Assembly (NCBI GenBank): GCA_003599175.1
Contig: QZIY01000024.1
Span: 1-54,069, forward strand
Reading direction: 5' to 3'
Length of the DNA: 54,069 nt
Source: Candidatus Parcubacteria bacterium
Lineage (GTDB): Bacteria > Patescibacteriota > Minisyncoccia > Phycocordibacterales > UBA2100
Part shown: piece after piece, positions 17,404 to 39,560 of the stretch
Layout of the letters: the number at the start of each line of letters is the position of its first letter
How positions within the stretch are numbered: the stretch's first letter is position 1
Position numbers and translations under genes: made by a program
The notes under the pieces: model-generated
Database searches by the model: none
The model's input: only the letters and a program-made list of their open reading frames with translations
What the model was told of the DNA's origin: nothing

Positions 17404-17431
17404 AGGCATTAGTTATCCACAGAGCGACTGT

Positions 17432-17458: not shown

Positions 17459-17502
17459 GTATTAGTAAAGGCCGATTATTATTATTAATAACTTATAAAC
17501 AT

Positions 17503-17784: not shown

Positions 17785-17786
17785 TT

Positions 17787-17990: not shown

Positions 17991-18017
17991 TTAATAAATT
18001 AAACGTAATAAAAATAT

Positions 18018-18239: not shown

Positions 18240-18257
18240 TCAATTAATTCAAAATAT

Positions 18258-18491: not shown

Positions 18492-18526
18492 CTGGAAAAA
18501 TCGTTTTATCAATTAATTAAAAAATT

Positions 18527-18757: not shown

Positions 18758-18758
18758 T

Positions 18759-19298: not shown

Positions 19299-19304
19299 AA
19301 CAAT

Positions 19305-20410: not shown

Positions 20411-20422
20411 TACTCACACTCT

Positions 20423-22651
20423 ATGAATCACGACCACAATTCAAAAGAAATTCTGTACACCTGCCCCATGCATCCGGAGGTGCAACAAGATAAACCTGGC
20501 TCATGCCCGAAGTGTGGCATGAGGCTTGTAAAAACTGAAGCAAAAACGGATCACAGCGCTCACGCCGGACATACAATGGGCGATCCGTCCAAGATGAGCT
20601 TCTGGGAAAGATTCAAAATGAGCATGTCTATGACGATGGGCATGGATCACACCGGACTGGCAGGTCGTGAGATGGCGCGACTCATGGAGATAGATATCCG
20701 AAACAAATTCTTTTTCGCACTTTTTCTTACGATCCCAATAATTCTCTATTCGCCTCTTGGCACCGAATTTCTAAAGCTCAACCTTCCTTCGCCAATTCCC
20801 GTTCCGTGGCTTCTCTTTATTTTAACCACGCCGGTATTCTTCTACTCTGGCTGGATTTTCCTCTATTCAACATACTTTGCTCTAAAAAATAAGCTGTTGA
20901 ACATGGCGGTGTTGATCGCCGTCGGCATTACTGCGGCCTATGGCTTCAGTGTTTTATTGACGCTGATCGGCAGTGCCGACTCGTACTACGAAGCGGCCGC
21001 CATGCTCATTACGTTCGTCTTGTTCGGCCACTGGATGGAGATGAAGTCTCGTCGCGGAACAACGGACGCACTTCAAGCCCTTTTCAATCTCGTACCGCCT
21101 CAAGCAAGAGTCTTCAAAGACGGCAAAGAGATGATGATTTCCACTTCCGATATACAACTCGGCGACATCATCATTCTTAAGCCGGGAGACAAAGTTCCCG
21201 TCGATGGAGAAATTACCGAGGGAGAAACTGCCATCGATGAATCCCTGGTTACCGGAGAGTCAATTCCGACTACTAAAAAGATCGGGGATCAAGTCATTGG
21301 CGGATCAATCAACACTGCCGGATCGGTAAAATTCAAAGCAACAAAAATCGGTAAGGACACCGCACTTGCGCGAATTGTGGCAATGGTAGAAGAAGCGCAG
21401 AACTCTAAAGCACCTGGACAAAGAATTGCGGATAAGTTTGCAAAGTACCTCGTCATTGGAGCCATAGGATCGGGGCTTCTTGTTTTTGGTATCTGGTACT
21501 TTGTGGCAGGTGCATCGCTTCTTGTCGCGCTGTCTTTTGCTATCGCAACAGTCGTCATCGCTTGTCCGGACGCTCTCGGACTCGCTACACCAACAGCCGT
21601 AGCCGTTGGGACCGGCCTCGGGGCTAAGCACAATATCCTCATTAAAGACGCTCCGACTCTTGAGCAGGTTTCAAAGATTCAAGCAATTGTCCTCGATAAA
21701 ACCGGCACGCTCACTGAAGGAAAACCGAAAGTTACCGACATAGCGACGGTGGATGGATACGACGCAGGCGAAGCACTTCGCTTGGTCGGCGCGGCTGAAG
21801 CGAAGTCGTCTCATCCTTTGGCCGGAGCGGTTCTCGATGAACTCAAAGTGCGAGGTCTCACACTGCCAGAGTCGGTTCTCAAATTTGAAAATCTTTCAGG
21901 TCTTGGAGTGAAAGCGGTCGTTGACGGAAAATCCGTACTTATCGGCACAGTGAGGCTGATGAAAGAAAGCAACATTACGCTCGGCACTTTGGATAAAAAG
22001 GTAAATGAGTTCTTAGAAAGAGGAGAGACGATCATGATACTCGCGGTTGATGGCGCTATTAAAGCTGTCATTGGCGCGGCTGATCCGATAAAGCCTAACG
22101 CCATAAAAGCAGTTGAGCGTTTGAAAGCGCTAGGAATCGAGATTGCCATGATCACCGGCGACAACAAAATGACCGCAGAAAAAGTAGCGAGTCAAATCGG
22201 TATAGAAAGAGTGTTTGCAGAAGTAATGCCTGCGGATAAAGCAAGCTATGTCAAAAAGCTCCAGCAAGAGGGTAAATTTACGGCGATGGTGGGAGACGGC
22301 GTAAACGACGCGCCAGCACTTGCCCAGTCTGATGTGGGCATTGCTATCGGCGCAGGCACGGACGTTGCGATAGAAACAGCAAAGGTCGTGCTGATGAAAT
22401 CTGATCCGTTAGACATACTGCGTGCAATAACCTTAAGCAAGGCAACGGTTCGCAAAATGAAGCAGAATCTTTTCTGGGCATCAATCTACAACATTCTCGC
22501 TATACCAGTTGCCGGTGGAATCTTGTATCCCAGCTTCGGTATCATGCTTCGTCCGGAATTTGCGGCACTTCTGATGAGCGTGTCCTCGATCATTGTTGCA
22601 GTAAATGCCGTATTATTAAAACGTGTCGAGAAAGATTTAATCACCCCATAA
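20423..22651 (+). CDS. heavy-metal translocating P1B-type ATPase (CopB-like N-terminus, atypical CPD motif)
   Basis: N-terminal CPMHPEV...CPKCGM metal-binding module and Met/His-rich stretch. TGES, ACPDALGLATP, DKTGTLT, GDGVNDAP. Confidence 0.9.
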   Translation: MNHDHNSKEILYTCPMHPEVQQDKPGSCPKCGMRLVKTEAKTDHSAHAGHTMGDPSKMSFWERFKMSMSMTMGMDHTGLAGREMARLMEIDIRNKFFFALFLTIPIILYSPLGTEFLKLNLPSPIPVPWLLFILTTPVFFYSGWIFLYSTYFALKNKLLNMAVLIAVGITAAYGFSVLLTLIGSADSYYEAAAMLITFVLFGHWMEMKSRRGTTDALQALFNLVPPQARVFKDGKEMMISTSDIQLGDIIILKPGDKVPVDGEITEGETAIDESLVTGESIPTTKKIGDQVIGGSINTAGSVKFKATKIGKDTALARIVAMVEEAQNSKAPGQRIADKFAKYLVIGAIGSGLLVFGIWYFVAGASLLVALSFAIATVVIACPDALGLATPTAVAVGTGLGAKHNILIKDAPTLEQVSKIQAIVLDKTGTLTEGKPKVTDIATVDGYDAGEALRLVGAAEAKSSHPLAGAVLDELKVRGLTLPESVLKFENLSGLGVKAVVDGKSVLIGTVRLMKESNITLGTLDKKVNEFLERGETIMILAVDGAIKAVIGAADPIKPNAIKAVERLKALGIEIAMITGDNKMTAEKVASQIGIERVFAEVMPADKASYVKKLQQEGKFTAMVGDGVNDAPALAQSDVGIAIGAGTDVAIETAKVVLMKSDPLDILRAITLSKATVRKMKQNLFWASIYNILAIPVAGGILYPSFGIMLRPEFAALLMSVSSIIVAVNAVLLKRVEKDLITP

Positions 22652-22655
22652 ATAT

Positions 22656-23315
22656 ATGTGTTTCTCAGCAACAGCAAGTTTGGTAGCAGGTGGAGCGCTT
22701 AGTGCGGTCGGAGTGGTGACCACTGCGAAAGCAAAGACCAAAAAGGAGTTGCCTTTTGCAATGGTGCCGCTCTTGTTCGGCATTCAACAACTGACCGAAG
22801 GGTTCGTGTGGCTGTCTTTCAGCTGGAATGCGGCAACTCTCAATCTCATCACGACATACATCTTTTCGCTGTTCGCATTCGTAGTCTGGCCTGTCTATGT
22901 GCCATTTGCGGTTGGACTCATGGAGACGGTGCCGTGGCGAAAGAAAGCAATCTACGCCTGCCAGATTGCAGGTCTTGCCGTTGGTGCATACCTGCTGTAC
23001 TCACACACGGCAAGTCTGGTTATTTCAGAGATCATTGGCAGGCATGTTGTCTACAGTAATTCTCACTTCTATCAATTTGCAGTAATGGTGCTGTATTTTG
23101 CGGCGACGATCGTGAGCTGTCTTTTCTCAAGCAAGAGGATAATTAGAGTGTTCGGTGTTTGCGCCTTCCTTCTTGCGATGGTGGCGGCATGGTTCTACAC
23201 GCAAGCCTTCGTGTCGGTTTGGTGTTTCTTTGCGGCAGTCTTGAGCTTTATCGTGTTCTGGCATTTCCGAAGTAACCCTATTACTGAAAGAGTCGACCCT
23301 AAATTAAAACTGTAA
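22656..23315 (+). CDS. polytopic membrane protein (DUF6629-like)
   Basis: MCFSATASLVAGG start, about 6 TM. The family assignment is from memory and weak. Confidence 0.45.
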   Translation: MCFSATASLVAGGALSAVGVVTTAKAKTKKELPFAMVPLLFGIQQLTEGFVWLSFSWNAATLNLITTYIFSLFAFVVWPVYVPFAVGLMETVPWRKKAIYACQIAGLAVGAYLLYSHTASLVISEIIGRHVVYSNSHFYQFAVMVLYFAATIVSCLFSSKRIIRVFGVCAFLLAMVAAWFYTQAFVSVWCFFAAVLSFIVFWHFRSNPITERVDPKLKL

Positions 23316-23321
23316 TTAACT

Positions 23322-23717
23322 ATGACTAAAAAACTCCAACAACTATTTCTGATCTCTATTCCGCTGTTTATCATTCACGGCTTGGAAGAGATTTTTATGG
23401 GTTTCTATAATATCGACTCCCAAGTAGATTTTTGGTTCGGTAATTTAAATTCTCTGCCTACTTCGCAAGCAACTTTTATTCTGTTCCAGATCATGATATG
23501 GCTCATGCTTATAGTTGCGTATCTACTTTTGCTTGGCCCCAAATGGCAACTACGGCTGATGTTCATCCCAGGAATTATCTTTGTGTATGAATTGCATCAC
23601 CTGTATAAAGCGGTTGAGGTTGGCGGTTATTATCCGGGACTTATCACCGCTATACCGCTTTACATAGTCGGGTTCCTTTTCTGGAAAGAATTAGTAAAAA
23701 ATTATAAATTAACATAA
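23322..23717 (+). CDS. HXXEE-domain membrane protein
   Basis: IIHGLEEIF (HXXEE motif), 4 TM. Confidence 0.6.
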   Translation: MTKKLQQLFLISIPLFIIHGLEEIFMGFYNIDSQVDFWFGNLNSLPTSQATFILFQIMIWLMLIVAYLLLLGPKWQLRLMFIPGIIFVYELHHLYKAVEVGGYYPGLITAIPLYIVGFLFWKELVKNYKLT

Positions 23718-23725
23718 TCAATCAT

Positions 23726-25330
23726 ATGAAAAATAAACTAATCGTTGGAGTCATTGCAGTCGTAGTCGTGATCGGTGGGATTGTCCTCCTGCAACAGTCA
23801 GGCACGGGGAATAAAGTGTTAGCTGGTAGTTTCTCAACTGACATCACTGGTCTCCCAGAAGCAATCTCATCAGAGATGGTCGAACTTAAAAATGGCGATA
23901 CCTACGACCTCACGGCTTCGATCGTAAAGAAAACGATCGGCAACAGCGTGGTCAAGATGCTCGCATATAACGGCATGATTCCGGGACCTATGATTAAAGT
24001 GCAACAAGGTGCGGAAGTGACACTTAATTTCACCAACAACACTGACGTCGATACGACGATTCACTCTCACGGAGTACGGCTAGAGAATAAGTTTGATGGT
24101 GTACCCGACATGACACAGAAAGAGGTCAAGCCAGGAGAGTCTTTCACGTACAAAGTGAAGTTTCCTGACGAGGGTATGTATTGGTATCACCCTCACATTC
24201 GAGAGGACTACGCGCAAGAACTTGGTCTCTACGGTAACTACCTTGTTACTCCCAACGATCCGAATTACTGGTCTCCGGTCAATCGTGAAGTCGCATTATT
24301 TGTAGACGATATTCTCATCGAAAATGGCAAGATTGCGACGTTCAGTAAAGTGTCCGCTGACCGTACTCTTATGGGCCGGTTTGGCAATACCATGCTCGTA
24401 AACGGTGAGACAGATTACGCACTTAAAGCAAAAGCAGGAGAGGTGATCCGTTTCTATATCACCAACTCGGCAAATACTAGAGTATTTAATCTTTCTATCC
24501 CCGGCGCAAAAATGAAGCTTGTGGGAGCTGATGGTGGTAAGTATGAACGCGAAACGTGGAGCGACGGCGTGATATTAAGTCCTTCTGAACGTGCCGTTGT
24601 TGAAGTGCTGTTTGCAAGTGCCGGATCATACAAGCTCGAGCATAAGACTCCGGATCGTACCTATACCCTTGGAACGATTGCCGTTGCGAATGAAAAAATT
24701 GAGACTTCTTTTGAGAAAGAATTTCTCACGCTTCGCTCAAATAAGGATATCCAATCAGAAATTGATGCCTTCAGGTCGTCCTTCAGTAAACCTGCAGACA
24801 AACGATTAAAGCTCACGATTGATATGGGCATGGATATGCAGGGCATGATGCAAAACAATACTGGTGGTCACAATATGAACATGATGGGCGGTGGAGAGAT
24901 GATGTCCAACAGTGAAATGGTGGCAAGCGGCGATCCTATTGAGTGGGAAGAAAACAATACGGCAATGAATACGATGTCTAACCCCGAAATGATGAAGTGG
25001 GTTATCCAAGACGAGGACACCGGTAAGAAAAACATGGATATTGATTGGAAATTCAAGGTCGGCGATAAGGTAAAAATTAAAATAACCAACGACCCGAAAT
25101 CCATGCATCCGATGCAACATCCGATCCACTTTCATGGTCAGCGATTCTTAGTGCTTTCTACCAACGGCAAACCTAGTGACAATCTTGTCTGGAAAGATAC
25201 GACCCTCATTCAAAACGGCGATACCGTGGAGATCCTTGTAGAAATGACCAATCCCGGCGAATGGATGGCACACTGTCATATCGCCGAGCACTTGGAGGCC
25301 AGCATGATGTTTGGCTTCAAGGTCGAGTAA
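23726..25330 (+). CDS. multicopper oxidase with Met-rich insert
   Basis: Copper ligand motifs HSHG, WYHPH, HPIHFHG, HCHIAEHLEASM. Met-rich loop MGMDMQGMMQNNTGGHNMNMMGGGEMM. Confidence 0.85.
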   Translation: MKNKLIVGVIAVVVVIGGIVLLQQSGTGNKVLAGSFSTDITGLPEAISSEMVELKNGDTYDLTASIVKKTIGNSVVKMLAYNGMIPGPMIKVQQGAEVTLNFTNNTDVDTTIHSHGVRLENKFDGVPDMTQKEVKPGESFTYKVKFPDEGMYWYHPHIREDYAQELGLYGNYLVTPNDPNYWSPVNREVALFVDDILIENGKIATFSKVSADRTLMGRFGNTMLVNGETDYALKAKAGEVIRFYITNSANTRVFNLSIPGAKMKLVGADGGKYERETWSDGVILSPSERAVVEVLFASAGSYKLEHKTPDRTYTLGTIAVANEKIETSFEKEFLTLRSNKDIQSEIDAFRSSFSKPADKRLKLTIDMGMDMQGMMQNNTGGHNMNMMGGGEMMSNSEMVASGDPIEWEENNTAMNTMSNPEMMKWVIQDEDTGKKNMDIDWKFKVGDKVKIKITNDPKSMHPMQHPIHFHGQRFLVLSTNGKPSDNLVWKDTTLIQNGDTVEILVEMTNPGEWMAHCHIAEHLEASMMFGFKVE

Positions 25331-25358
25331 AAGCTCGTCACAGGGGCAAACAGGTGGC

Positions 25359-25386
25359 AAAAAGGGGCTTACAAAGGCTCCTTTTT
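25359..25386. terminator. bidirectional rho-independent terminator between convergent genes
   Basis: AAAAAGGGGC-ttacaaag-GCTCCTTTTT (one G-U pair), with A/T runs on both sides. Confidence 0.55.
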
Positions 25387-25406
25387 GCTTTGAGTGTTTA
25401 TAAGAA

Positions 25407-25718
25407 CTAGCAGTGTTGAGCTAGGACAGTGATACATTCATGGATGTGCGGTAGGCATACCAGACAATGAGCCACCGGTAATTGATTAAAGAAACCAAAA
25501 ATAATGGGCAATTTCCTTAGTTTCGGTTTCTTCTCCTGCAGATATCTTTCGGCAGGCTTTATAATGACCTCAATTTTTGTCCGTACTTCTATTTCAAGGA
25601 GTTTCTGACAGCTCGGGCAACGCATCGTAAACGAGGCATTGGAATTGAACGCTCCATTTTTGAAGATAATATTAGTGCAATGAGGGCAATTGCCTATATT
25701 CAACTGATCTTGATCCAT
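25407..25718 (-). CDS. zinc-ribbon protein with C-terminal hydrophobic segment (hypothetical)
   Basis: CPHC...CPSC pairs. Confidence 0.4.
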   Translation of the reverse strand: MDQDQLNIGNCPHCTNIIFKNGAFNSNASFTMRCPSCQKLLEIEVRTKIEVIIKPAERYLQEKKPKLRKLPIIFGFFNQLPVAHCLVCLPHIHECITVLAQHC

Positions 25719-25844
25719 AGATGGTGCTGGAGGTTTCTTGGGCTGGTGGTTGGTTGTGAAGCTTCAGAAATCCTCGATCATGGTTAATTAATAAATCGTT
25801 TCGCTGTCCTGGGTCGACCACCTCCCGGACAGCTAACGGGCAAA

Positions 25845-26378
25845 TTAGGTGTCATCCATTGCCTTTCGTTTCGAGCCAGTCATCGACATCTTGTCGACCA
25901 GCACTTTTTTCATTTCCTCCAAGTTATCCACAGTTTTTTGATCACGAGCGTAATTCTTTTTATTTAAGTCTTTTTCTTTATTCTTGTTAGTAATTCCGGC
26001 TGACTGATCTGACCGGTCTGTGTGACCGATGTGCCGGTCTGACTGACCGATCTGATTTGGGGTCGGTCTGTGTGACCGATCTAGTTTTAAGAGGTAGTAC
26101 AGGTTGTGGTATCGTTGTCGGCCTTTGCGAATGAGATTCAGTTTTATAAGTTGCCGGATGCCTCTTTGCACGCTCGAGATGCTGGCTCCTATTTTGTTGG
26201 CAATGTGCTTGTGTGATGGAAAACAAAAACCCTCCTGATTAGCATGTGCCGCCAGGCAGTTATAAATTGCGATGCCGATCGGCTTGAGTCTTTGGCCATA
26301 TTCCTCGAGGAGTGCTTTGTTGACCCAGTACCAATCGCCATTTCTTAAATCTCTAACTTTTATTTTTTCATCAGACAT
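25845..26378 (-). CDS. helix-turn-helix replication-initiator-like protein (HTH_36/DnaD-like)
   Basis: IAIYNCLAAHANQEGFCFPSHKHIANKIGASISSVQRGIRQLIKLNLI. ATG at 26378 (MSDEKIK). Contains iterons in its 3' half. Confidence 0.6.
   Translation of the reverse strand: MSDEKIKVRDLRNGDWYWVNKALLEEYGQRLKPIGIAIYNCLAAHANQEGFCFPSHKHIANKIGASISSVQRGIRQLIKLNLIRKGRQRYHNLYYLLKLDRSHRPTPNQIGQSDRHIGHTDRSDQSAGITNKNKEKDLNKKNYARDQKTVDNLEEMKKVLVDKMSMTGSKRKAMDDT
25996..26080. repeat. iteron-like direct repeats inside the rep-like gene
   Basis: CCGGTCTGTGTGACCGAT (26013-30), CCGGTCTGACTGACCGAT (26034-51), TCGGTCTGTGTGACCGAT (26063-80), and a degenerate copy at 25996-26012. Confidence 0.65.
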
Positions 26379-26570
26379 GGCAACGAATAATAAAGGCGAC
26401 TGGTTGACCAGACCGCGCCTTATTCCTCCCATCACCGTCTGGCGCCATTGAGGGGAGAGTAAGACGCCGTCTACCATTCTTTTGCTTTGGGTAGTGCCCG
26501 GTCGATGTTGTCCATCGCTCGACAGAAGTCTCGTCGCATAGTTGGATTTTCAAGTTCCCGGATGGTGAAA

Positions 26571-26849
26571 TTAGTCAGCAGACTCTCCCGTCTCCAAAGA
26601 AGTTCCTTCCTCGTCGGCGGCTTCCGAGTTATCCGTTTCCACATCGTCCGGATAAGTCTCTTGATCAGGATTTTCGTTCTCATGTTTTTTGATTTGATCC
26701 ATGTGATCCAATAGCATGAACGCCATGCGCTTAAAGCCAGCATGGACTTTCCAAACTTCTTGTCGGGAAGGCTCTCGGCCGAGAACGTCGGTGAGAGCAT
26801 TGCGAGTAAGCTCAACAAGAGCTTCCTCATCTTTGTTTGGTTTGGACAT
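26571..26849 (-). CDS. hypothetical protein with acidic C-terminus
   Basis: 92-aa ORF preferred over the overlapping 131-aa frame because its composition is more protein-like. No homology recognised. Confidence 0.35.
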   Translation of the reverse strand: MSKPNKDEEALVELTRNALTDVLGREPSRQEVWKVHAGFKRMAFMLLDHMDQIKKHENENPDQETYPDDVETDNSEAADEEGTSLETGESAD

Positions 26850-26907
26850 GCGGTGGTTTGGTTCATAGAAGTGACCTCACACTTTTTTGATCCACCCTGC
26901 CTTACGA

Positions 26908-27114
26908 CTAAGGCAAGAAAACTTCCTCTACTCTGACTCCGAGAGCCAAAGCGATCCGCTGGGCTGTTTCGAGATTCGGACGCTTCCGTCCTGTCTCGTA
27001 CCGGCTGATCGCAGTGTTATGCCTAAAACCAAGGATTCGGGCTAGCTGGTATTGCGTTAGCCCTTTCTTGATTCGAAGGTCACGGAGTTTTATATTCACT
27101 GGTGATTTGTTCAT
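26908..27114 (-). CDS. XRE-family HTH regulator (Cro-like)
   Basis: LRIKKGLTQYQLARILGFRHNTAISRYETGRKRP. Confidence 0.8.
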   Translation of the reverse strand: MNKSPVNIKLRDLRIKKGLTQYQLARILGFRHNTAISRYETGRKRPNLETAQRIALALGVRVEEVFLP

Positions 27115-27143
27115 ATGTTTAACTTTTAGACCCCTACAGTCAT

Positions 27144-27259
27144 ATTAAGCAATTTTGCTTAATAGGTCAATATATTAGCATGTGGATAAGCAAAGTTGCT
27201 TAATATTTACTAATTTGCTATAGTTAAGCAATCAAGGTCGTCATTAATCGCTTAAGCAA
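27144..27259. promoter_or_regulatory. operator cluster of the divergent cro/cI-like switch
   Basis: Perfect palindrome ATTAAGCAA-TT-TTGCTTAAT (27144-63). Near-palindrome ATAAGCAA-AG-TTGCTTAAT (27186-204). Half-sites TTAAGCAA at 27224 and 27252. Confidence 0.65.
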
Positions 27260-27270
27260 AATCAACGAAT

Positions 27271-27987
27271 ATGTCATTTGGTTCATATCTAAAAAAACAA
27301 AGGGAATCGAATAATTGGACTATAAAAGAGCTGGCCGAACGGCTCGGTTTTTCGTCGAGCTACATCAGCCAGCTGGAGAATGGAGCTCGCATCCCGTCCC
27401 AAAAACAGCTGGCCATTTTTGCTAAGGCTTACCAACTCCCCGAGGAGGAAGTCAGGAAGCAGTGGACGGAGGGAAAGATCCAACAGGTCAGTAAGGACGG
27501 TAATTACAAATTTGGCATCACAGATGCCGGTGATAAGCGTGTACACGAAGTCGCCAATAAACTCGAAGAGGGATTGGAGGAATTAAAAAAAAGTTTTTCC
27601 GGTGACGGCCATTTTAAATTGCCAGTACTCGTAGCAATTCCTATTGATGATCTCGATGGTCATCTGAGTCGAACGAGTGACTTTGTGTTATTGCCAAAAG
27701 ATAACGTCATACCGGGTCACCGAGTATTTGGACTGCGTGTGTCCGATCTGACGCTCCCCGATGCCGGCATTCTTTCCGGAGACTTCATCATTCTCGATGC
27801 AGACATTCCTGCAAAGAATGGCGACATCGTGATCATGAGTACACCGGATGGTCTGGTCATGAGTTATTACCAAGAACGGGGCGATCACCTCGAACTTCGG
27901 CCGGAGAGAGATGGTTTCAAAAAGACCTACCATCTCCAAGAAAGCAAAATGATAGGTCGTCTGGTCTATCACATAAAAAAATACTAA
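27271..27987 (+). CDS. CI-like repressor: XRE HTH plus S24/LexA-like C-terminal domain (catalytic dyad apparently degenerate)
   Basis: WTIKELAERLGFSSSYISQLENGAR. C-terminal GDFIILDADIPAKNGDIVIM...LELRPE. Confidence 0.8.
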   Translation: MSFGSYLKKQRESNNWTIKELAERLGFSSSYISQLENGARIPSQKQLAIFAKAYQLPEEEVRKQWTEGKIQQVSKDGNYKFGITDAGDKRVHEVANKLEEGLEELKKSFSGDGHFKLPVLVAIPIDDLDGHLSRTSDFVLLPKDNVIPGHRVFGLRVSDLTLPDAGILSGDFIILDADIPAKNGDIVIMSTPDGLVMSYYQERGDHLELRPERDGFKKTYHLQESKMIGRLVYHIKKY

Positions 27988-27992
27988 TCGCC

Positions 27993-28019
27993 AGGGCTCT
28001 CCACCAAACGGAGAGCCCT
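27993..28019 (+). terminator. hairpin downstream of the cI-like gene (possible terminator)
   Basis: AGGGCTCTCC-accaaac-GGAGAGCCCT. Only a weak T-run follows. Confidence 0.4.
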
Positions 28020-28087
28020 CAAGCATTTTAGAGAATAAAAAGTAAAGAAAAGGTCAAAAATTATTAAAGAATTTATAAACTAAAATC

Positions 28088-29653
28088 ATGAACTACTTAA
28101 TCTACGGCCGTGTCTCTACCTCTCGTCAGGCCGAACGAGAACTGAGTATTCCGGCACAGGTGAAAGCATGTCAGAAGTACGGCATGGATCACCACTGGAC
28201 TCTCGCACCAGACGGCATTTATGAGGAAAAGGGCGAATCAGCTCGAACAGTTGAACGTCCACAGCTTCAGAAAATGCTTCACCGAGCAAAGACGGACGGC
28301 AAGGTCGATGTGATCTTGATGCACAAGTTGGACCGTATGTGTCGTAACGTCGCCGACTATGCGGCCATAAAGATGATGCTCAAAAAGCACGACGTCCGAT
28401 TGATCTCGGTGGTCGAGCAGTTCGACGAGTCTTTCTCCGGAGAGCTGGTCGAGAACATCATGTCGTCGATCGCTCAGTGGACGTCCCAGAACATCAGCTG
28501 GGAGGTCAAGAAGGGTCTCAAGGAGGCCGTAGAGCGTGGTCGTTTTCCCGGATACGCACCAACCGGTTACTTAAACGATAAGAAAACAAAGTCACTCATC
28601 GTCGATACTCTGCGAGCACCATTCGTAAAGATGGCGTTTGAGTTCTACGCCACCGGCAAGTACAGCTACGATTCACTTGCCGCCGAGCTTGCTAAGCGTG
28701 GCTTCAAAAGCAAATACGGAAATCTGGTGAGACGAACATCGATCGAGCATATCCTGATGAACCCGATCTACTACGGTCTGGTTAAAACTCGTTCAGCAAC
28801 GTGTCAGTCAAGTTTTCCGACACTCATCACCAAAAAACTCTTTGACGACGTTCAGGAGATCATCCAACAGCACAATCACTCTGCCGATCGCAGTCGTAAG
28901 CATTCATATCCGATGGCTGGATTCATGCGATGCGCCGTCTGTGGTTCTACACTTTGTGGGCAGACGCAAAAAGGTCATCTCTACTACGCATGCACCCATT
29001 GGAACGATAAGACCTGTTCGGAGCGCAAATACATCCGCTGGGAGACGGTTGAGGATCAGGTCGCAAATCATCTCTCAAGAGTGCAGTTGCCTGATCGGTT
29101 TAAGAAGGTCTTGGATGCCTACTTCCAGCACTTCGCCAAGGAGCGAATGGGTCAGGAAGAGAGGGAGCGAAAGACTCTCAGGCAGGAGCTAGTAAGGGTG
29201 CAACAGCAGATCCGGAACATCGTCGTGGATCGCTCAAAACGCATCATAGACGCTGATGTGTTTATAAAGATTCAGGACGAGCTCTTAAAGGAGAAAGAGA
29301 TGTATCAGGAACGTTTGTCGATCCTTGAGGGTAAGTCGGACAAATTCGTGCAGAAGTTTAACGAGATACTCGACTTTACGGAGCATGCTGATAAGGTGTT
29401 CCGAACCAGTGGCATGCACCAGAAGCGAACGCTGGTGAAGCTCTGTTTTGAGGGCTTCACGGTGCAAAATCAAAAACTGACGCCAATATGGACGCCAGTC
29501 TTTGATGTTCTTATGGACTTAAACTCTAGCAATTTCGAACCCCCAAAAGTCGGTGGCAAGGGCTCAAAAACTCTTGCCGTGACTAAGGTTCAAAGTTGCC
29601 AATCTGGCGGAGGGGGAGGGATTCGAACCCTCGATACGGTTTTACCCGTATAG
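28088..29653 (+). CDS. large serine recombinase/integrase (copy 2); last ~15 codons overlap tRNA-Ser on the opposite strand
   Basis: YGRVSTSRQ...LDRMCRN catalytic domain, recombinase domain, Zn-ribbon CAVCGS...YYAC, coiled coil. The C-terminal GGGGGIRTLDTVLPV is a translation of the tRNA complement. Confidence 0.85.
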   Translation: MNYLIYGRVSTSRQAERELSIPAQVKACQKYGMDHHWTLAPDGIYEEKGESARTVERPQLQKMLHRAKTDGKVDVILMHKLDRMCRNVADYAAIKMMLKKHDVRLISVVEQFDESFSGELVENIMSSIAQWTSQNISWEVKKGLKEAVERGRFPGYAPTGYLNDKKTKSLIVDTLRAPFVKMAFEFYATGKYSYDSLAAELAKRGFKSKYGNLVRRTSIEHILMNPIYYGLVKTRSATCQSSFPTLITKKLFDDVQEIIQQHNHSADRSRKHSYPMAGFMRCAVCGSTLCGQTQKGHLYYACTHWNDKTCSERKYIRWETVEDQVANHLSRVQLPDRFKKVLDAYFQHFAKERMGQEERERKTLRQELVRVQQQIRNIVVDRSKRIIDADVFIKIQDELLKEKEMYQERLSILEGKSDKFVQKFNEILDFTEHADKVFRTSGMHQKRTLVKLCFEGFTVQNQKLTPIWTPVFDVLMDLNSSNFEPPKVGGKGSKTLAVTKVQSCQSGGGGGIRTLDTVLPV

Positions 29654-29696
29654 CGATTTAGCAAACCGCCGCACTAGGCCACTATGCGACCCCTCC
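29605..29696 (-). tRNA. tRNA-Ser (anticodon GCT) with encoded CCA
   Basis: Reverse complement: GGAGGGG...GCGGT-TTGCTAA-ATCGC...TATACGGGTAAAACCGTAT...GAGGGTTCGAATCCCTC-CCCCTCC-G-CCA. The 38-nt variable arm/T-arm block is identical to tRNA 8265..8353. Confidence 0.9.
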
Positions 29697-29714
29697 AGTG
29701 TGATGCATCGTACT

Positions 29715-30710: not shown

Positions 30711-30818
30711 GTCTCCATTTTACCACATCTTCGATGAATTTATTCTCGTGTTTTGCAAAAGACTAGAATAAGAAAAAGCGACTCTTTTTAGGCACGAAGC
30801 ATTTGGTATATTAAACGC

Positions 30819-31780: not shown

Positions 31781-32480
31781 ATGAGCGACGAGGACCTTCA
31801 AATTGAGGCAACTGCATTGGCATTTGTAAAGTCACACGAGAAGGACATTATCGAGAAGTTTTGTGGTTCGTGTCAGCAGGTAATAACACCCGTGTCTCTT
31901 TTTATGGCCGGCTCCCCGGGAGCAGGGAAAACAGAAGTTTCAACAAGCTTGGTACGTCGATTTGAAACAGTGCCTGTTCGTATTGATGCTGATGAAATAC
32001 GTTCAATGTGCCCTGGTTATACGGGTGCAAATGCTCATGTGTTTCAGAAAGCAGCGACTAAGGGAGTGCATATTCTGTATGATCACGCGCTTCGTACAAA
32101 CATTCACGTGATATTGGATGGAACATTTGCGTATGCAGATTCCCTAAGAAATATCGAACGATCAATCGATCACAAGCGAAAGGTAGAGCTTTGGTTTATC
32201 TATCAAGACCCAGTGATGGCATGGAAGTTTACGCAGGCGAGAGAGGCCCTCGAATCACGTCGTATATCGAAGGATACGTTTATTACAAGCGTTCATAAAG
32301 TCCAAGGAAAATGCGAAGGCCGCAAAGGAAGCGTTCGGTCCTTCACTTACCCTTAACCTCCTTATTAAGAATATAGACAACAGTGATGGTAGTCTGCATC
32401 TCAATATCCAAAGCACTGATCTTGACCCACATATCGGGCAAGCCTATACTGCAGATGAGCTATCGCGCTTACTGGTATGA
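31781..32480 (+). pseudogene. zeta-toxin-family P-loop kinase interrupted by a +1 frameshift near 32220-32300
   Basis: MAGSPGAGKTE Walker A and RIDADEIR. Frame 1 stops at 32356. The next frame reads on as AFIKSKENAKAAKEAFGPSLTLNLLIKN... to a TGA at 32478-80 that overlaps the next ATG (ATGA). Confidence 0.55.
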
Positions 32481-32677
32481 CACAATATATTCTCAAATTA
32501 CTTGGCTTCTCCCGAGGCGAAGCTCCCACAGAAACCGACGATTTTTCGGAGTTTTTTCTTCATGCTAAGTCAAAAACAAAAGCAAAGGTGATGCGTGAGA
32601 TTATGCGGGAAGCAACAGAAGAGCAGGAAGCGCTTCTTCGGCGCTATCAAGATAGCAAGCTAAGCACTGTAAAGTAA
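32477..32677 (+). CDS. hypothetical 66-aa protein, start overlaps the extended zeta-toxin frame
   Basis: ATGA overlap. Charged helical composition. No homology recognised. Confidence 0.35.
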   Translation: MTQYILKLLGFSRGEAPTETDDFSEFFLHAKSKTKAKVMREIMREATEEQEALLRRYQDSKLSTVK

Positions 32678-32778
32678 TCAGCTTGTAAGGTCTCATCTCC
32701 CTTGGATTTCTCCGTTTCCATAAAATGCCTGCCCGGTAGTCTCTATACTGCCGGGAAGATTTGTGGGATAGTGAGGAA

Positions 32779-33033
32779 ATGGCGAAGAGAGAATTTACGC
32801 ACGACGAGGCGAAGCGGATCGGGGAGGCTCTTGGTATCGACTTTTCAATCGTTGATCTGGAGCAATTTCGCATGGGGCTCGGTGTGGAGCTTGAGCATGG
32901 GGCGCATGACAGGGAGACCAATGTGACGGGGGACGATGAGTTGATGACCGGGAAAATTGCCTGGGCGCATCTCAAAGAAATTCCCGATTACTATACGCGC
33001 CTCTCTCAGATGGAGGCCGAGGCCGAAGCATAG
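32779..33033 (+). CDS. small conserved hypothetical (DUF5661-like)
   Basis: MAKREFTHDEAKRIGEALGIDF...LGVELEHG. ATG lies 6 nt after the GATAGT of the 12-mer TTGTGGGATAGT. Confidence 0.45.
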   Translation: MAKREFTHDEAKRIGEALGIDFSIVDLEQFRMGLGVELEHGAHDRETNVTGDDELMTGKIAWAHLKEIPDYYTRLSQMEAEAEA

Positions 33034-33087
33034 GCAGGAGCGTATCGCGCCGTTGGCACAGGAGGGGTTTTGTGGGATAGTTTTGGC

Positions 33088-33453
33088 ATGGCCGAGAGGA
33101 AGACAGCGACTTTGCAGAATTTGGAAAAACAGGTGATCGCGTTTCGTGACCTGCGAGATTGGAAGCAATTTAATAATCCCAAAGACTTGGCCTTGTCACT
33201 TTCACTCGAAGCGGCGGAGGTGTTGGAGCATTTTCAATGGAAGGCGACGCCGGAGGATATTGAGAAGCACATTAAGATGCACAAAAAGGAGATCGGGGAA
33301 GAGCTTTCGGATGTGCTCTATTGGGTGCTCACGATGAGCCATGATCTTGAAATAGATCTTGCCGATGCGTTTGAGAAAAAGATGAGAAAGAATGCCAAAA
33401 AATATCCCCTCAAAAAATCCAAAGGCAAGAGCGCCAAATACAACCAGCTCTAG
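33088..33453 (+). CDS. MazG-like nucleotide pyrophosphohydrolase
   Basis: RDWKQFNNPKDLALSLSLEAAEVLEHFQW...EELSDVLYWVL...KMRKNAKKYP (EExxE/D-type MazG core). Confidence 0.8.
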   Translation: MAERKTATLQNLEKQVIAFRDLRDWKQFNNPKDLALSLSLEAAEVLEHFQWKATPEDIEKHIKMHKKEIGEELSDVLYWVLTMSHDLEIDLADAFEKKMRKNAKKYPLKKSKGKSAKYNQL

Positions 33454-33454
33454 T

Positions 33455-35458
33455 ATGGCGACGATTCAAAGTTTCGAATTCAACGAAACTGGTTTTGAAG
33501 ACATTAGGAACCATCCTCTCGGTAGGGACTGGCCGATTGTTTACATAATCGAAAATGGAAAAGATGTATACATTGGTGAGACGACAAGTGCGTTTGGAAG
33601 AAGCAAACAACATTTTGAAGATGAACGGCGGCTAAAACTAAGAAAGATTCATCTTGTACTCGATGATGAGTTTAATAAGTCAGCAACACTCGATTTGGAA
33701 TCACAGCTCATTCAGTATTTTTCTGCGGAAGGCAGTGTTAAATTGCAAAACCTAAATAAAGGGCTCGTTAACCATAACTTTTTTGATAAAGGCAGGTATC
33801 GCGCAAAGCTTCAGAGCATTTGGGAGCAGCTTCAGCGCATGCTGCTTGTTAGCAAGAGTTTAGAAGAAATTGAAAACAGCGAACTGTTTAAGTACTCTCC
33901 ATACAAAGCGCTAACCGAAGACCAACTCATCGTTGCCGAGGAGCTGTATGAGGCCGTAAAAAATCGTGATGGGGTTACGCATATCGTAAATGGCGGTCCG
34001 GGCACCGGCAAAAGTGTTTTGGCTACATATCTGGCTAAGAGACTGAAAGAGGAACCAGAGACAAAAGATTTGTCGATTGGACTCGTGATCTCTATGTCAC
34101 CACTCCGCAAATCTATTCAGGATGTTTTTTCTGCAATTTCTGGTCTCAACAGAAAGATGGTAGTTGGGCCGAGCGAAGTCGTGGGGCAGAAATTCGACCT
34201 ACTAATTGTGGACGAAGCTCATCGATTGCGCCAGCGAAAATCAATCGTAAATTATGGAGGACATGATCGAGCAAACCGACGGCTTGGTTTGGGCAATGAG
34301 GGAACGGAGCTCGATTGGATATTGATGAGCTCGAAACAGCAAATACTTTTCTATGATGAAAATCAAAGCATTCGTCCTTCCGACATTCACGTCAAGCGGT
34401 TCAAGGATATTGATGCGCGACATCACAAGCTGACTACTCAAATTCGTGTAAAAGGCGGTGATAAATATATTGCGTTTGTCGACGATCTTTTTTCGGGAAA
34501 ACAGGAACTAGATACCGCTTTCGAAAACTATGATTTTCAAATTTACGATGACATCGAACAAATGGTAGAGGATATTAAGAAGAAAGATAAAGAAATGCGT
34601 CTTTCAAGAATAGTTGCTGGCTTTGCATGGCCCTGGATAAGCAAGAATAATCCTGAGGCATTCGACATAGAAATCGATGACACGAAATTGCGCTGGAATA
34701 GTACTACCGAGGATTGGGTTAATTCACCAAATGCGATCAACGAGGTTGGTTGCATACATACCGTGCAAGGATACGACCTCAATTACGTTGGCATTATCGT
34801 CGGACCTGAGCTTGCCTATGATGCAAAGAATGATCGACTGACTGCTGACAAGGATAAATATGAGGATCGGAACGGATGGCAGGGCGTCGAAGATCCGGCC
34901 GAACTGGAGCGTTACATCATTAATATTTACAAGACGTTGATGACTCGCGGGATTCGCGGCTGCTACCTGTACTTCGTCGATAAGGAAACCGAGCGCTATT
35001 TCAAATCGCGACTTGGGCAACAATCGGTTGAAAGTTTCATTCAGCTCGTTAAATCGCCAATAACTGTTGAAATGGTTCAAGTACCGCTTGTAGGGTCAGC
35101 GCCGTGCGGTAATCCGCTGCTCGGAGAGGAAAACATCGAGGAATATATCGAAGTGCCAAAAGCAAAACTTCGATCCGGTGCTAAATATTTTATTGTCCGC
35201 GCTGAAGGCGATTCAATGAATCTGGCGGGAATTCAAAACGGCGATTTGGTGCTTTGCCGACTTGCAGAAAAAGGGGAAACAGGGGATCGAGTTGTGGCAC
35301 TCTTCGATGGGGAATATGTCACGATCAAGGAATATGGACCACGCATTGACGGGATCCGGCAGCTACTCCCTAAAAGCACCAACAAAAGACACTCGGTCAT
35401 AACTCCGGGAGAAGGAGACAGTGTCCAGGGGATTGTACAGGAGGTTCTAAAAGATTAA
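33455..35458 (+). CDS. three-domain protein: GIY-YIG nuclease + DUF2075/SF1-like P-loop NTPase + C-terminal S24 (LexA/UmuD-like) autopeptidase
   Basis: IVYIIENGKDVYIGETTSAFGRSKQH (GIY-YIG). GGPGTGKS and LLIVDEAHRL. IHTVQGYD and MTRGIRGCY. PLVGSAPCGNPLL, GDSM and TIKEY (S24). Confidence 0.8.
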   Translation: MATIQSFEFNETGFEDIRNHPLGRDWPIVYIIENGKDVYIGETTSAFGRSKQHFEDERRLKLRKIHLVLDDEFNKSATLDLESQLIQYFSAEGSVKLQNLNKGLVNHNFFDKGRYRAKLQSIWEQLQRMLLVSKSLEEIENSELFKYSPYKALTEDQLIVAEELYEAVKNRDGVTHIVNGGPGTGKSVLATYLAKRLKEEPETKDLSIGLVISMSPLRKSIQDVFSAISGLNRKMVVGPSEVVGQKFDLLIVDEAHRLRQRKSIVNYGGHDRANRRLGLGNEGTELDWILMSSKQQILFYDENQSIRPSDIHVKRFKDIDARHHKLTTQIRVKGGDKYIAFVDDLFSGKQELDTAFENYDFQIYDDIEQMVEDIKKKDKEMRLSRIVAGFAWPWISKNNPEAFDIEIDDTKLRWNSTTEDWVNSPNAINEVGCIHTVQGYDLNYVGIIVGPELAYDAKNDRLTADKDKYEDRNGWQGVEDPAELERYIINIYKTLMTRGIRGCYLYFVDKETERYFKSRLGQQSVESFIQLVKSPITVEMVQVPLVGSAPCGNPLLGEENIEEYIEVPKAKLRSGAKYFIVRAEGDSMNLAGIQNGDLVLCRLAEKGETGDRVVALFDGEYVTIKEYGPRIDGIRQLLPKSTNKRHSVITPGEGDSVQGIVQEVLKD

Positions 35459-35526
35459 TTTCAGCGATAAAAAGCTCTTGTGTGTCGTTACTTTGAGGCG
35501 TAGTCTGAAGGCGGTTTCCCATACAT

Positions 35527-37311
35527 ATGAAATATCTAAGCTTTGAAATTCAGGACTACAGGGCCGTCGCGCGGGCCATAATCCCTGTCGGGAACAACCT
35601 GATTCCGATCATTGGCATAAATGAGTCGGGCAAAACGACAATACTCCAAGCAATTCTCGCTTTCGACAAAAACAAGGACAGATATAACAGGGGAGTACAT
35701 CTCGAACACAAAAATAAATACGAACTCGGCGAAAAGGGTGGCAAGGTATCAGCCCAAATTCTCATCGAATCTAAGGACGACCTTGAATGGATTGCCTCAA
35801 AACTCGATTTGAACGTCGCGACTCCGCGATACAAAGCGCTTGAGGCCTTTTTCGATAATAAGAAGCCGATAACCCTAAGCAGGGTCTTCCCCGGTAAGTT
35901 GTATCAAATCGAGAACACCGAATTTGATATTGGTACAAAAAAAGAGAAAAAAGACATGGCAAATGCGTTATACGAAAGATTGCCGTTCGTGCTCTACTTC
36001 GACGATTTTAGTGATCGTGTTCCGGAACAAATCGAATTCTTCCTGAAATCAGAGTTGCAAATACCCGTTACAAGCCCCGAAGGCGGCCAAACCTTTAGGA
36101 CGCAGAAGATCGACAAACATCGTCCTGCCGTAGCAGACGATGAGTGGCATGAGATTCTTGAGGAGGTTTTCAAGAGAGCGGGAAATCATACTCTCGCGGA
36201 CTTTCTCAAAATGAAGGATGGAGACGATCAAAAAGGCCTCATGAGCGATATTCAGGATACTCTCCAGCGGGAAGTGATGGAGGACTGGAAGAAGCTGAAA
36301 AACTACGGCGGTCATTTTGCCGATGAACCAGAGGATCTTGAATTGAAGCTCGACTGGGAGATAACGGATGACGGAGAGAGCATTATATTCGAGTTTCAAG
36401 TCGAAGATCGTACGGCGAAGAAGAGTCGTTTTTTCAGCATTCCGGAACGCAGCAAGGGATTCCAATGGTTCTTTAACTTTACGATGAAGCTAAAGTTCAA
36501 CCCGAAATATCAAGCGAATCAGAAAGGAGCAATTTATCTCCTTGATGAACCGGGGTCGTATCTACACACATCCGCCCAGGAGGAGCTTCTCAAGAAACTT
36601 AGTGACATATCCAACACAAACACGATCCTATACTGCACGCACTCACAGTATCTTCTAGACCCAGAAGTGATAAACATCGCAAAAATAAAGATCGCAAAAA
36701 AGGAGAAAGGAGTGATTGAGGCGGTCTCATTCGACGAGGCGGGGGTTACGAAAAACGAGGGGGCGCTAACTCCGTTGTACCAGGCGCTTCATATTAAATC
36801 TGGTGCGTTCAACAAGCACGTAAAACACCCGGTAATTACCGAGGGAATCACCGATTTCTACTTGTTCAGCTTACTCAAAAAACATAGCTCAGGTTTTTTC
36901 AAGGATGGAATAGATTTTATTCCCGGAGGAGGCGCAAGTCATCTCACGGAACTAATCTCGCAAGCCATAGCTTTTTCAGATTCCTACCTGGTCCTTCTCG
37001 ATTCTGACGGCGCAGGGCGCGACGCGTATGAAAAATACCGTACCTTTTTCGGGGATGAAGAGGCTAAGAAATTCTTCAAATACAGACTTCACTCAACGGA
37101 TGAAAACGTAGTGCTCGAAGACCACGTATCAGCTGGCGACAAAAAAAGATTGAGCGACATCACGGGGGTCGCGGACGTGAAGGCCGCTTTCCCGGTGCTC
37201 TACTATTCCAAAATTAAGGACCAAAAAGAGTTCATCGGCAATCTCGACGCCGACACTCAGAAAAACCTGAGCATCGTCCAAGGTAAGGTAAACGGCATTG
37301 CAAAGAAATGA
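35527..37311 (+). CDS. OLD-family nuclease (ABC-like ATPase + TOPRIM)
   Basis: GINESGKTT Walker A, IYLLDEPGSYLH Walker B, CTHSQ. TOPRIM VITEGITD...LLDSDGAGRD. Confidence 0.85.
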   Translation: MKYLSFEIQDYRAVARAIIPVGNNLIPIIGINESGKTTILQAILAFDKNKDRYNRGVHLEHKNKYELGEKGGKVSAQILIESKDDLEWIASKLDLNVATPRYKALEAFFDNKKPITLSRVFPGKLYQIENTEFDIGTKKEKKDMANALYERLPFVLYFDDFSDRVPEQIEFFLKSELQIPVTSPEGGQTFRTQKIDKHRPAVADDEWHEILEEVFKRAGNHTLADFLKMKDGDDQKGLMSDIQDTLQREVMEDWKKLKNYGGHFADEPEDLELKLDWEITDDGESIIFEFQVEDRTAKKSRFFSIPERSKGFQWFFNFTMKLKFNPKYQANQKGAIYLLDEPGSYLHTSAQEELLKKLSDISNTNTILYCTHSQYLLDPEVINIAKIKIAKKEKGVIEAVSFDEAGVTKNEGALTPLYQALHIKSGAFNKHVKHPVITEGITDFYLFSLLKKHSSGFFKDGIDFIPGGGASHLTELISQAIAFSDSYLVLLDSDGAGRDAYEKYRTFFGDEEAKKFFKYRLHSTDENVVLEDHVSAGDKKRLSDITGVADVKAAFPVLYYSKIKDQKEFIGNLDADTQKNLSIVQGKVNGIAKK

Positions 37312-38252: not shown

Positions 38253-38451
38253 CAATGCTTTGGTCGGAAAGTAACCTGTCCAGCGTCCAGCGCCGATTTT
38301 CTAGAGATCGGTGTCAGGTACCGTTTTGAATAAAACTTGTTTTTGGGGGAAACGGTGTCAGGGAAACGGTGTCAGGTACTTTTTTCTTGATTGGAAACGG
38401 GAAGAAAGCATGGCCTTAAAATGAAATGAGATTTGTGGTATAATGTTATAT

Positions 38452-39003: not shown

Positions 39004-39125
39004 GACAGAAGCGGTGTTTCCAGAAGCAGTGTCTGGTACCGTTTATCCTTTGTGGGCAAGATTCCGTTGCCAGTGGTTCCGCTTCTTGTTATAGATGAGG
39101 CATCAGGGTATCCACCTGGATTGTC

Positions 39126-39560
39126 ATGACCGATAAACAAAGTTCAGTTGTGAAAGCGGTGATTTTTTATCGTGACTATATCGCTGGGCCGCTCTGGGAG
39201 AAGCGCAAGGAAGAATACTACTCGCGCCATGCGAAAGCCTGCTATATCTGCGGTGATACAAAGGGGGTAGAACTCAACCACAAGAAGTATGGAAATTATG
39301 GCCACGAGAAAGATTCGGATCTAGTGGCGCTCTGCCGCACGCACCATCAGATCATTACCGATCGCCACAAAACACGAAAGAACATGCACTACCAGCACGA
39401 CTACATGATTGATGAATTGAAGCGCGAGTGGGACGCGGAGCATGAGGGTAAATCAATTGCTATGACTCCAGTGCGACAGGCGAAATCGTCTCCCGGATCA
39501 GTGGAGAAGGCGTTGGAATCATTGGCGAATCCTATTTGGAAATTGTTTGGGAGAAAGTGA
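39126..39560 (+). CDS. HNH-like nuclease-fold protein
   Basis: CYICGD...ELNHKKY...LVALCRTHHQ. Confidence 0.55.
   Translation: MTDKQSSVVKAVIFYRDYIAGPLWEKRKEEYYSRHAKACYICGDTKGVELNHKKYGNYGHEKDSDLVALCRTHHQIITDRHKTRKNMHYQHDYMIDELKREWDAEHEGKSIAMTPVRQAKSSPGSVEKALESLANPIWKLFGRK

Follow-up and report, generated by a model that had tools for sequence, protein, structure and literature searches.

Do three genes that follow one another closely on a single strand constitute one defence system, or does only part of them belong together? The question is raised by a MazG-like gene, a long fusion gene and an OLD-family nuclease gene in contig QZIY01000024.1 of a Candidatus Parcubacteria bacterium (GenBank assembly GCA_003599175.1), whose 54,069-nucleotide (nt) stretch was analysed in full and is referred to here as the window. 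An initial annotation made from the sequence had interpreted the three as a candidate undescribed system in which OLD would be the partner of a DUF2075-type helicase-like protein carrying its own nuclease and an S24 autopeptidase. This interpretation is partly supported by our analysis: the MazG-like gene and the nuclease-helicase-S24 gene make up a genuine conserved unit without a validated name, a two-gene operon, and OLD is an unrelated neighbour placed beside it by chance juxtaposition in a variable region of lower G+C content. We consider it somewhat probable that the segment 33071-35458 is a self-contained, mobile operon resembling Nhi, in which the S24 domain would act as a RecA*-responsive latch, with OLD as a separate stand-alone nuclease. 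The positions, stop codon, spacers and common orientation reported for the three genes were all borne out on the sequence:

33088-33453, + strand: MazG-like open reading frame (ORF), 121 amino acids (aa), TAG stop at 33451-33453
33455-35458, + strand: fusion ORF, 667 aa, ATG at 33455, 1 nt past the MazG TAG
35527-37311, + strand: OLD ORF, 594 aa, separated from the fusion ORF by a 68-nt spacer

When one genome per species (185,579 in all) was scanned for relatives of the fusion protein, at least 589 confirmed loci were recovered, 80 of which were kept. A MazG-like gene lies immediately upstream of the fusion relative in 79 of these 80, mostly overlapping it or a few bases away, a spacing that suggests translational coupling between the MazG and helicase genes; the sole locus lacking it is interrupted by a contig end. 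The same inspection for OLD homologs within 8 kb of the fusion relative gave none at any of the 80 loci, and in the reverse direction neither MazG nor DUF2075 genes were found around OLD homologs (0/83 loci). The adjacency of MazG that the initial annotation proposed to look for is therefore well established, whereas that of OLD is not. Since OLD co-occurs with the pair at none of these loci, a system with OLD as partner is unsupported as a conserved unit; a lack of co-conservation between DUF2075-type and OLD genes, which the annotation had itself named as evidence against its proposal, is therefore what these counts reveal.

The limits of the unit can also be read from the closest fusion relative among the matches listed, a protein of 90% amino-acid identity encoded on contig L181, in which an HD-domain gene, MazG, the fusion, a membrane protein gene and an ABC-F gene follow one another. 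Nucleotide similarity between this contig and the window covers 33071-35453 (81.4% over 2391 bp), a segment that coincides exactly with MazG and the fusion; the flanks are unrelated to the window, and OLD and all other neighbours fall outside the common segment, which ends at the fusion stop codon. This homology boundary and the forward and reverse neighbourhood tests rule out OLD as a partner of the pair. One extra match between the two contigs, of 36 bp at 94% identity, was noticed between L181 129-164 and window positions 30741-30776, upstream of a TrhO-like rhodanese gene.

That MazG, the DUF2075-S24 protein and OLD nonetheless work as one defence system, with OLD as the effector and the helicase as a Gabija-like partner, could be argued from their common direction, the 68-nt spacing and the failure of terminator prediction to place any terminator between the fusion and OLD genes, and also from the lineage of P0132, the only one of the seven close OLD homologs looked up that has a MazG-DUF2075 pair nearby. 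There, however, OLD lies upstream of the pair at a distance of 1.9 kb, so the order is reversed, two unrelated genes stand between them and the helicase has no S24 domain. Set against the co-occurrence counts, and against a closest relative in which a membrane protein and ABC-F occupy the place downstream of the fusion, the three-gene system appears to us highly improbable. The resemblance to Gabija (class 2 OLD; GajA being the OLD protein and GajB the UvrD-like helicase) amounts to OLD adjoining a superfamily 1 (SF1) helicase gene; unlike GajB, a UvrD-like SF1A enzyme, the helicase in the window belongs to SF1B/DUF2075, is encoded upstream and is not co-conserved, and the PADLOC models of GajA score worse on the window OLD than the Old and AriA models. 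No UvrD-like helicase was found beside the OLD homologs in the loci examined, and Gabija was rejected. For annotation purposes, an OLD gene beside a helicase gene should not be called Gabija-like, or a new OLD system, without co-occurrence evidence.

The search for a third conserved gene near the pair gave none, the commonest neighbour family being TspO (12 of the 80 loci), followed by MazF, YgjP and Fic. In the window the zeta toxin, DUF5661 and Fic genes are confirmed neighbours of the MazG-fusion-OLD stretch; the initial annotation had placed zeta toxin, Fic and HNH genes in the same island, and the first two of these hold, whereas the putative HNH ORF (39126-39560) yielded nothing at E≤1e-3 in a Pfam search. 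As recurrent partners of the pair, zeta toxin, Fic, the HNH-like ORF and DUF5661 were all discarded, only the zeta gene with the 66-aa ORF that accompanies it being found again, at one of the 80 loci. The lower G+C content noted by eye was also correct, with 0.44-0.46 across 33-38 kb vs 0.51-0.59 across 40-54 kb of the window.

What the OLD protein is can be answered apart from the pair. It matches AAA_15 in Pfam (E 4.4e-21) and Old in PADLOC (E 1.1e-17), with an OLD-like TOPRIM Pfam match just below threshold (21.9 bits vs 23.2). Residues G30-T37, D340-E341, H372, E439-G440 and D492-x-D494 do not vary among 25 homologs, and the TOPRIM residues align to those of 6P74, the class 1 Thermus OLD, which is also the best PDB match (1e-6), ahead of GajA and AriA (4e-4 for AriA). 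As regards PARIS (class 4, with AriA as ABC ATPase and AriB as DUF4435-type TOPRIM, separate or fused), the AriA model of PADLOC matches aa 1-376 (E 5.9e-20), the generic AAA_15 region, and AriAB only about 50 aa (6.5e-11); DUF4435 gave no Pfam match in the protein. No neighbour is conserved across the 83 OLD homolog loci, where the commonest neighbour family is present at only 6, and the contexts of the seven close homologs all differ (a methyltransferase; a second AAA_15 ATPase; a Septu-like ATPase with HNH; nothing recognisable), one of these homologs lying in an element with a serine recombinase. A retron-associated OLD (class 3) was rejected, as Pfam found no reverse transcriptase domain among the neighbouring ORFs and an Rfam search of 29-40 kb for a retron non-coding RNA returned only tRNA. 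By the context-based scheme of PMC10568477, the protein is a predicted class-1-type, single stand-alone nuclease of defence type, situated in defence islands. With class 1 OLD proteins (P2 Old, Thermus scotoductus 6P74, Vibrio cholerae) it shares the ABC ATPase, the C-terminal TOPRIM E...DxD and the lack of a fixed partner, although it is only about 20-25% similar to them. Class 1 genes have been described as lying away from defence genes (PMC10568477); unlike these, members of the window OLD subfamily, which span many phyla, sit among restriction-modification genes (HpaII endonuclease, type I and type ISP restriction enzymes), ApeA, AIPR and Septu-like genes. At two loci of close homologs (L178 1351-4941 and L083 417-3562) a second AAA_15/AAA_23 ATPase comes directly after OLD; in the former it is succeeded by an HNH protein, and the two form a PtuA/PtuB pair of Septu-like kind just downstream of OLD.

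Turning to the pair itself, the domains that the initial annotation had assigned to the MazG, fusion and OLD proteins (MazG, GIY-YIG, DUF2075 helicase, S24 and OLD) were backed by Pfam, by invariant residues and by fold matches. The start of the MazG-like gene is ambiguous (TTG at 33070, ATG at 33088, or about 33112, the latter giving the 113-aa product P0241 of the collection). The 121-aa ORF has a MazG-like Pfam match (E 5.8e-16), its PDB matches include the pyrophosphatase 4qgp (3.8e-19) and dCTP pyrophosphatase 1 (1.7e-16), and the ExxE...ExxD residues E41, E44, E47, E72 and D75 are invariant in all 80 relatives. It is predicted to be an all-alpha nucleoside triphosphate (NTP) pyrophosphohydrolase of the DCTPP1/RS21-C6 branch. 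Two further observations concern this gene. At locus L174 (5001-6193) there is a 4-nt overlap between the gene of a 66%-identical MazG homolog and that of a 282-aa protein without Pfam match, a transposase coming next; the 282-aa protein may be an alternative partner for the MazG subfamily of the window. Besides, a 30-nt direct repeat (TTTGTGGGATAGT...ATGGC.GAGAG; copies at 32760-32789 and 33069-33098, 77% identity) is found at the 5' ends of the DUF5661 and MazG genes, and may be a promoter or leader element common to both; a promoter-like site (33053-33081) extends into its second copy, where homology with the contig of the closest relative also begins (33071).

The fusion protein can be divided as follows:

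33455-33784, + strand: GIY-YIG domain (aa 1-110), a helical linker then extending to about aa 140
33875-35014, + strand: SF1B helicase core (aa ~141-520), with Walker A GGPGTGKS, DEAH, motif V IHTVQGYD and motif VI TRG
35084-35458, + strand: S24 (LexA/UmuD-type) autopeptidase domain (aa 544-667), with Ser587 (GDSM) and Lys625 (TIKEY)
35105-35110, + strand: codons of Cys551-Gly552, the predicted S24 autocleavage site, in a flexible linker

The motifs GGPGTGKS, LLIVDEAH and GDSM were read directly in its sequence. The central part matches the Pfam family SLFN-g3_helicase, formerly DUF2075, over aa 176-509 (E 7.4e-68), and the helicase residues K186, D253, E254, H256, Q304, R331 and R498 are invariant in all 81 relatives. 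The GIY-YIG match of the window protein is below the Pfam threshold (E 1.5e-3; 19.2 bits vs a cut-off of 22.6); the same model passes threshold in the divergent relatives P0434, P0475, P0379 and P0453, and Y30, Y39, G41, R49, E82 and N99 are unchanged in 81/81 relatives. An AlphaFold2 (AF2) model of aa 1-138 (predicted local distance difference test, pLDDT, 88.6) finds its best PDB match in the GIY-YIG domain of UvrC (1yd4/1ycz), a weak fold match with a Foldseek E of about 0.1, a probability of 0.85-0.93 and a template modelling (TM) score of 0.60. With the tyrosines and the Arg, Glu and Asn residues in place, the N-terminal domain is assigned to the GIY-YIG nuclease superfamily, as a member that scores below threshold in the window protein. 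The Foldseek comparison that the initial annotation suggested agreed with its domain assignments: the full-length model (pLDDT 81.8) has RecD2, SLFN11, Upf1, RecD and Dda as best matches, placing it among SF1B helicases, and LexA for its C-terminal part. Among the matches listed there are at least 120 homologs of the fusion with 56-90% identity, nearly all full-length and with the same Pfam architecture. The GIY-YIG-type N-terminal domain is found in 324 clusters at 50% identity among 1.84 billion representatives (E≤1e-10), and 8 of the 10 long members of these clusters that were scanned carry S24.

For the C-terminal S24 domain, our literature search retrieved no paper on a fusion to DUF2075 or a comparable enzyme. 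Its Peptidase_S24 Pfam match has an E-value of 1.5e-17, and its PDB matches are LexA (7e-16 to 1e-13) and UmuD (7e-13). When the profile was aligned with E. coli LexA, C551-G552 coincided with the AG of VAAGEPL, Ser587 with the serine of GMSM and Lys625 with the lysine of TVKRL; these are, respectively, the Ala84-Gly85 cleavage site, Ser119 and Lys156 of LexA. UmuD is cleaved at Cys24-Gly25. The linker bearing the predicted cut is modelled with low confidence in the full-length AF2 model (pLDDT <50 over residues 549-557). The domain is borne by about half of the relatives (42/81), and S587, K625 and Cys551-Gly552 are invariant in the 42 that have it. Forms with and without S24 are interleaved when the helicase bodies are placed in a neighbour-joining tree, which means that gain or loss of the domain has happened more than once. 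The S24-less orthologs stop at about residue 520-545, close to the predicted cut, and no stand-alone S24 gene was found beside them in the 80 loci examined. The likeness to LexA, UmuD and phage CI thus comprises the Ser-Lys dyad, an (A/C)-G site in a linker just upstream of the core and the domain fold; unlike in these proteins, the cargo is a 550-aa nuclease-helicase and not a helix-turn-helix (HTH) domain or the arm of a polymerase subunit, Pfam finding no HTH domain in the fusion, whose N-terminal 540 aa consist of nuclease and helicase. Nuclease-helicases with S24 are a real variant that has apparently not been described before.

How far does this unit correspond to something already known? 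No PADLOC model for it was found when the proteins of the window were searched, only partial matches to AbiO, Nhi, PDC-S41 and PDC-S14; those of Nhi and AbiO fall on the N-terminal half of the helicase at E ~1e-12 (for Nhi, aa 142-379 only, E 3e-12). Both the nuclease and the helicase activities of Nhi (S. epidermidis SERP2475) are needed for anti-phage defence (Bari et al., 10.1101/776245), and a validated relative by architecture, 'Nhi-like', is known from B. cereus FSL H8-0482 (Millman et al. 2022, 10.1101/2022.05.11.491447). Like Nhi, the fusion combines in one polypeptide chain a nuclease at the N-terminus and a DUF2075/SF1B helicase whose motifs are intact. In contrast to Nhi, its nuclease is GIY-YIG rather than PD-(D/E)xK, so that similarity is confined to the helicase core; it has an obligate MazG-like partner gene; and it ends in an S24 autopeptidase where Nhi has a glyoxalase-like tail. 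Membership of the Nhi family by sequence was rejected, given the lack of a full-length hidden Markov model match and the GIY-YIG nature of the N-terminal domain.

A closer counterpart is the candidate named 'Pyrophosphatase' in Table S2 of 10.1101/2022.05.11.491447, which consists of a pyrophosphatase of 98-108 aa and a DUF2075 protein (SG192 and SG193); the claim that the cassette is undescribed is accordingly right in that no PADLOC model names it, but not as regards the MazG plus DUF2075 pair, already among the candidates of Millman et al. (2022). This pair is an unverified candidate and not a named system, and our literature search found no paper with MazG plus DUF2075 in its main text. 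As in SG192 and SG193, a small MazG-like gene is co-directional with an adjoining DUF2075 gene. The window MazG and the SG193 pyrophosphatase share 50% identity (E 9e-33), the C-terminal KSKG..KYNQL included, and the helicase core is 28% identical to that of SG192; the DUF2075 proteins of SG192 and SG193 differ in having no S24 and a longer, different N-terminus with what we read as a D...ExK-like motif. Outside bacteria, human SLFN11 and the other group-3 Schlafens have a homologous helicase (SLFN-g3_helicase; SLFN11 7zel is among the top fold matches), and in SLFN11 too a nuclease is coupled to a single-stranded DNA (ssDNA)-sensing, SF1B-like module, acting at stressed replication forks; unlike Schlafens, the fusion has no AlbA_2 RNase domain and its nuclease is GIY-YIG. 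Bacterial Schlafen defence proteins were set aside as a match, the papers on them concerning the RNase domain and not a helicase of the fusion type.

The pair is co-inherited across Patescibacteria, Bacillus plasmids and Pseudomonas, and it is horizontally mobile. On megaplasmids of the Bacillus cereus group it is annotated as 'nucleotide pyrophosphohydrolase' and 'DUF2075' (MazG E ~1e-32), next to HNH genes, in some cases zeta-toxin genes, and also insertion sequence (IS) elements. In Pseudomonas putida LUCV01000007.1 (L183 5681-8202) MazG overlaps the gene of a 733-aa GIY-YIG-helicase-S24 protein (WP_064301751.1), 38% identical to the fusion, with an Ala-Gly site, GESM and TVKEY; P. bharatica CSV86 carries the same full architecture (WP_009394069.1). 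Both being cultivable, these pseudomonads provide a tractable model in which the idea of S24 self-cleavage is directly testable. The neighbours of the pair include McrB_N, Mrr_cat, NERD, YhcG/NucS PDDEXK nucleases, YgjP and DNA methylases, as well as MazF, AbiEii, SocA, Fic, RhuM and Bro-N, an assortment typical of variable regions related to genetic conflict. A phage origin was rejected, since viral sources yielded only two IMG/VR loci and three unverified GenBank 'Bacteriophage sp.' contigs, one of which bears the pair and the others just the helicase. The MazG plus GIY-YIG/DUF2075 pair is abundant in bacteria of the candidate phyla radiation, whose defence and repair repertoires are poorly known.

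All four predicted catalytic centres of the pair (MazG, GIY-YIG, helicase and S24) are shown to be intact in their conserved residues, and its predicted biological role is most likely in conflict with phages or mobile DNA. It is tempting to envisage that the helicase would engage ssDNA or replication intermediates and that the GIY-YIG domain would nick or degrade DNA in the manner of Nhi, while the S24 tail would keep the enzyme restrained or dimeric. RecA-ssDNA filaments on replicating phage or damaged DNA could then trigger self-cleavage at Cys551-Gly552, freeing an active 551-aa nuclease-helicase equivalent to the S24-less orthologs; MazG, for its part, might remove dCTP or modified dCTP that the invader requires, or keep the nucleotide pool and the nuclease in check. 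More speculatively, and with low confidence on our side, the nuclease-helicase might be gated directly by the RecA filament, as a post-translational 'SOS effector' and bacterial counterpart of SLFN11 with MazG as its obligatory partner, within an ancient immunity or genome-surveillance pair of Patescibacteria, Bacillota and Pseudomonas. If true, we know of no earlier case of a LexA-type self-cleaving module directly controlling an enzyme effector instead of a repressor or a polymerase subunit.

Several observations weigh against a defence operon with an S24 latch, and many of them feed its main competitor, a module for DNA damage or replication stress in which MazG would sanitise damaged or non-canonical deoxynucleoside triphosphates, the GIY-YIG-helicase would process lesions or stalled forks by UvrC-like incision and unwinding, and S24 would tie activation to RecA filaments, making the enzyme a post-translational SOS effector. 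The family is under strong purifying selection and is unusually well conserved, with some 45-58% identity even where the records of two loci name different candidate phyla; in our reading, the neighbour-joining tree apparently groups loci partly by the taxon recorded for them; and relatives on viral contigs number 2 of 2.9 million in IMG/VR. High identity, a tree that follows taxa and rarity in viruses fit a vertically kept genome-maintenance gene. The P. putida pair lies among metabolic genes, between a pyrroloquinoline quinone (PQQ) dehydrogenase and a LysR regulator, and MazG homologs about 65% identical to that of the window occur at loci without any DUF2075 gene. SG192 (B. firmus) was marked 'x' for no protection vs the phage panel, and SG193 (B. 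thuringiensis) is given as 'Cloning failed' (10.1101/2022.05.11.491447, Table S2). Moreover, three parts of the model are ones that we infer: that S24 cleavage depends on RecA, how cleavage affects activity, and what MazG acts on. The damage module gains further from S24 being an SOS hallmark with LexA and UmuD as best matches, from a GIY-YIG domain closest to UvrC and a MazG closest to the house-cleaning DCTPP1, and from methyladenine glycosylase, NUDIX and bleomycin-resistance-type genes among the upstream neighbours. On the other hand, no synteny with repair genes is conserved, and restriction-type nucleases, toxin-antitoxin and Abi genes dominate the neighbours; the unit moves as a discrete piece between unrelated contexts, the Bacillus megaplasmids with their HNH, zeta-toxin and IS elements among them; its matches in at least 589 of the 185,579 species genomes are consistent with an accessory rather than a core gene; and no LexA box was found upstream of the P. 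putida pair. A damage-response function is therefore possible but, in our estimation, doubtful. The negative screen of SG192 counts against defence without being decisive: unverified candidates may yet be defensive (Millman et al. 2022, 10.1101/2022.05.11.491447), and the screen may have lacked the trigger or suitable phages, which would be a possible reason for the failure of the Bacillus candidate.

It could also be that the two genes behave as an addiction pair similar to toxin-antitoxin modules, the nuclease-helicase being toxic and MazG neutralising it or its product, with stabilisation of plasmids or islands or abortive infection as the outcome. The helicase is hardly ever found without MazG, while MazG also occurs without the helicase, and the dependence is therefore one-sided, which speaks for such a pair; the suggested translational coupling, the one Bacillus instance that could not be cloned, the megaplasmid location and the other toxin-antitoxin genes alongside all point in the same direction. 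Toxicity is, however, conjecture only, SG192 could be cloned, and MazG, an enzyme whose active site is intact, does not resemble the usual labile antitoxins, which leaves an addiction pair unlikely. The mobile two-gene operon with an S24 latch thus remains the reading that we prefer.

Other parts of the window deserve mention. The zeta-toxin gene (31781-32356) is followed by the 66-aa ORF (32477-32677), and the same pair at L009 11633-12506 (E 2e-34 and 6e-7) hints at a zeta module of two genes, the second being a downstream partner. Two tRNA-Ser(GCT) genes, at 8265-8354 (+) and 29605-29696 (-), are inverted with respect to each other and have identical 3' halves (~46 nt) and different 5' halves; the second is adjoined by a large serine recombinase (28088-29653) and an HTH_3 plus Peptidase_S24 repressor of the CI/LexA type (27271-27987). 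The tRNA pair with the recombinase and repressor resembles the trace left by an integrative element that targets tRNA genes, with a possible later inversion. A block of lower G+C content (~17000-29700; 0.41-0.50) contains a copper P-type ATPase (20423-22651) and a multicopper oxidase (23726-25330), together with an unusual fusion of ATP-cone and Mrr_cat (19305-20162), an AAA_28 protein (18711-19298) and HTH_36 (25845-26477), and is probably a mobile element with copper resistance. Finally, three copies of a terminator-like hairpin, CGGTGTCAGGTACCGTTTT, are found around the Fic gene, at 38309-38327, 38367-38385 and 39027-39045.

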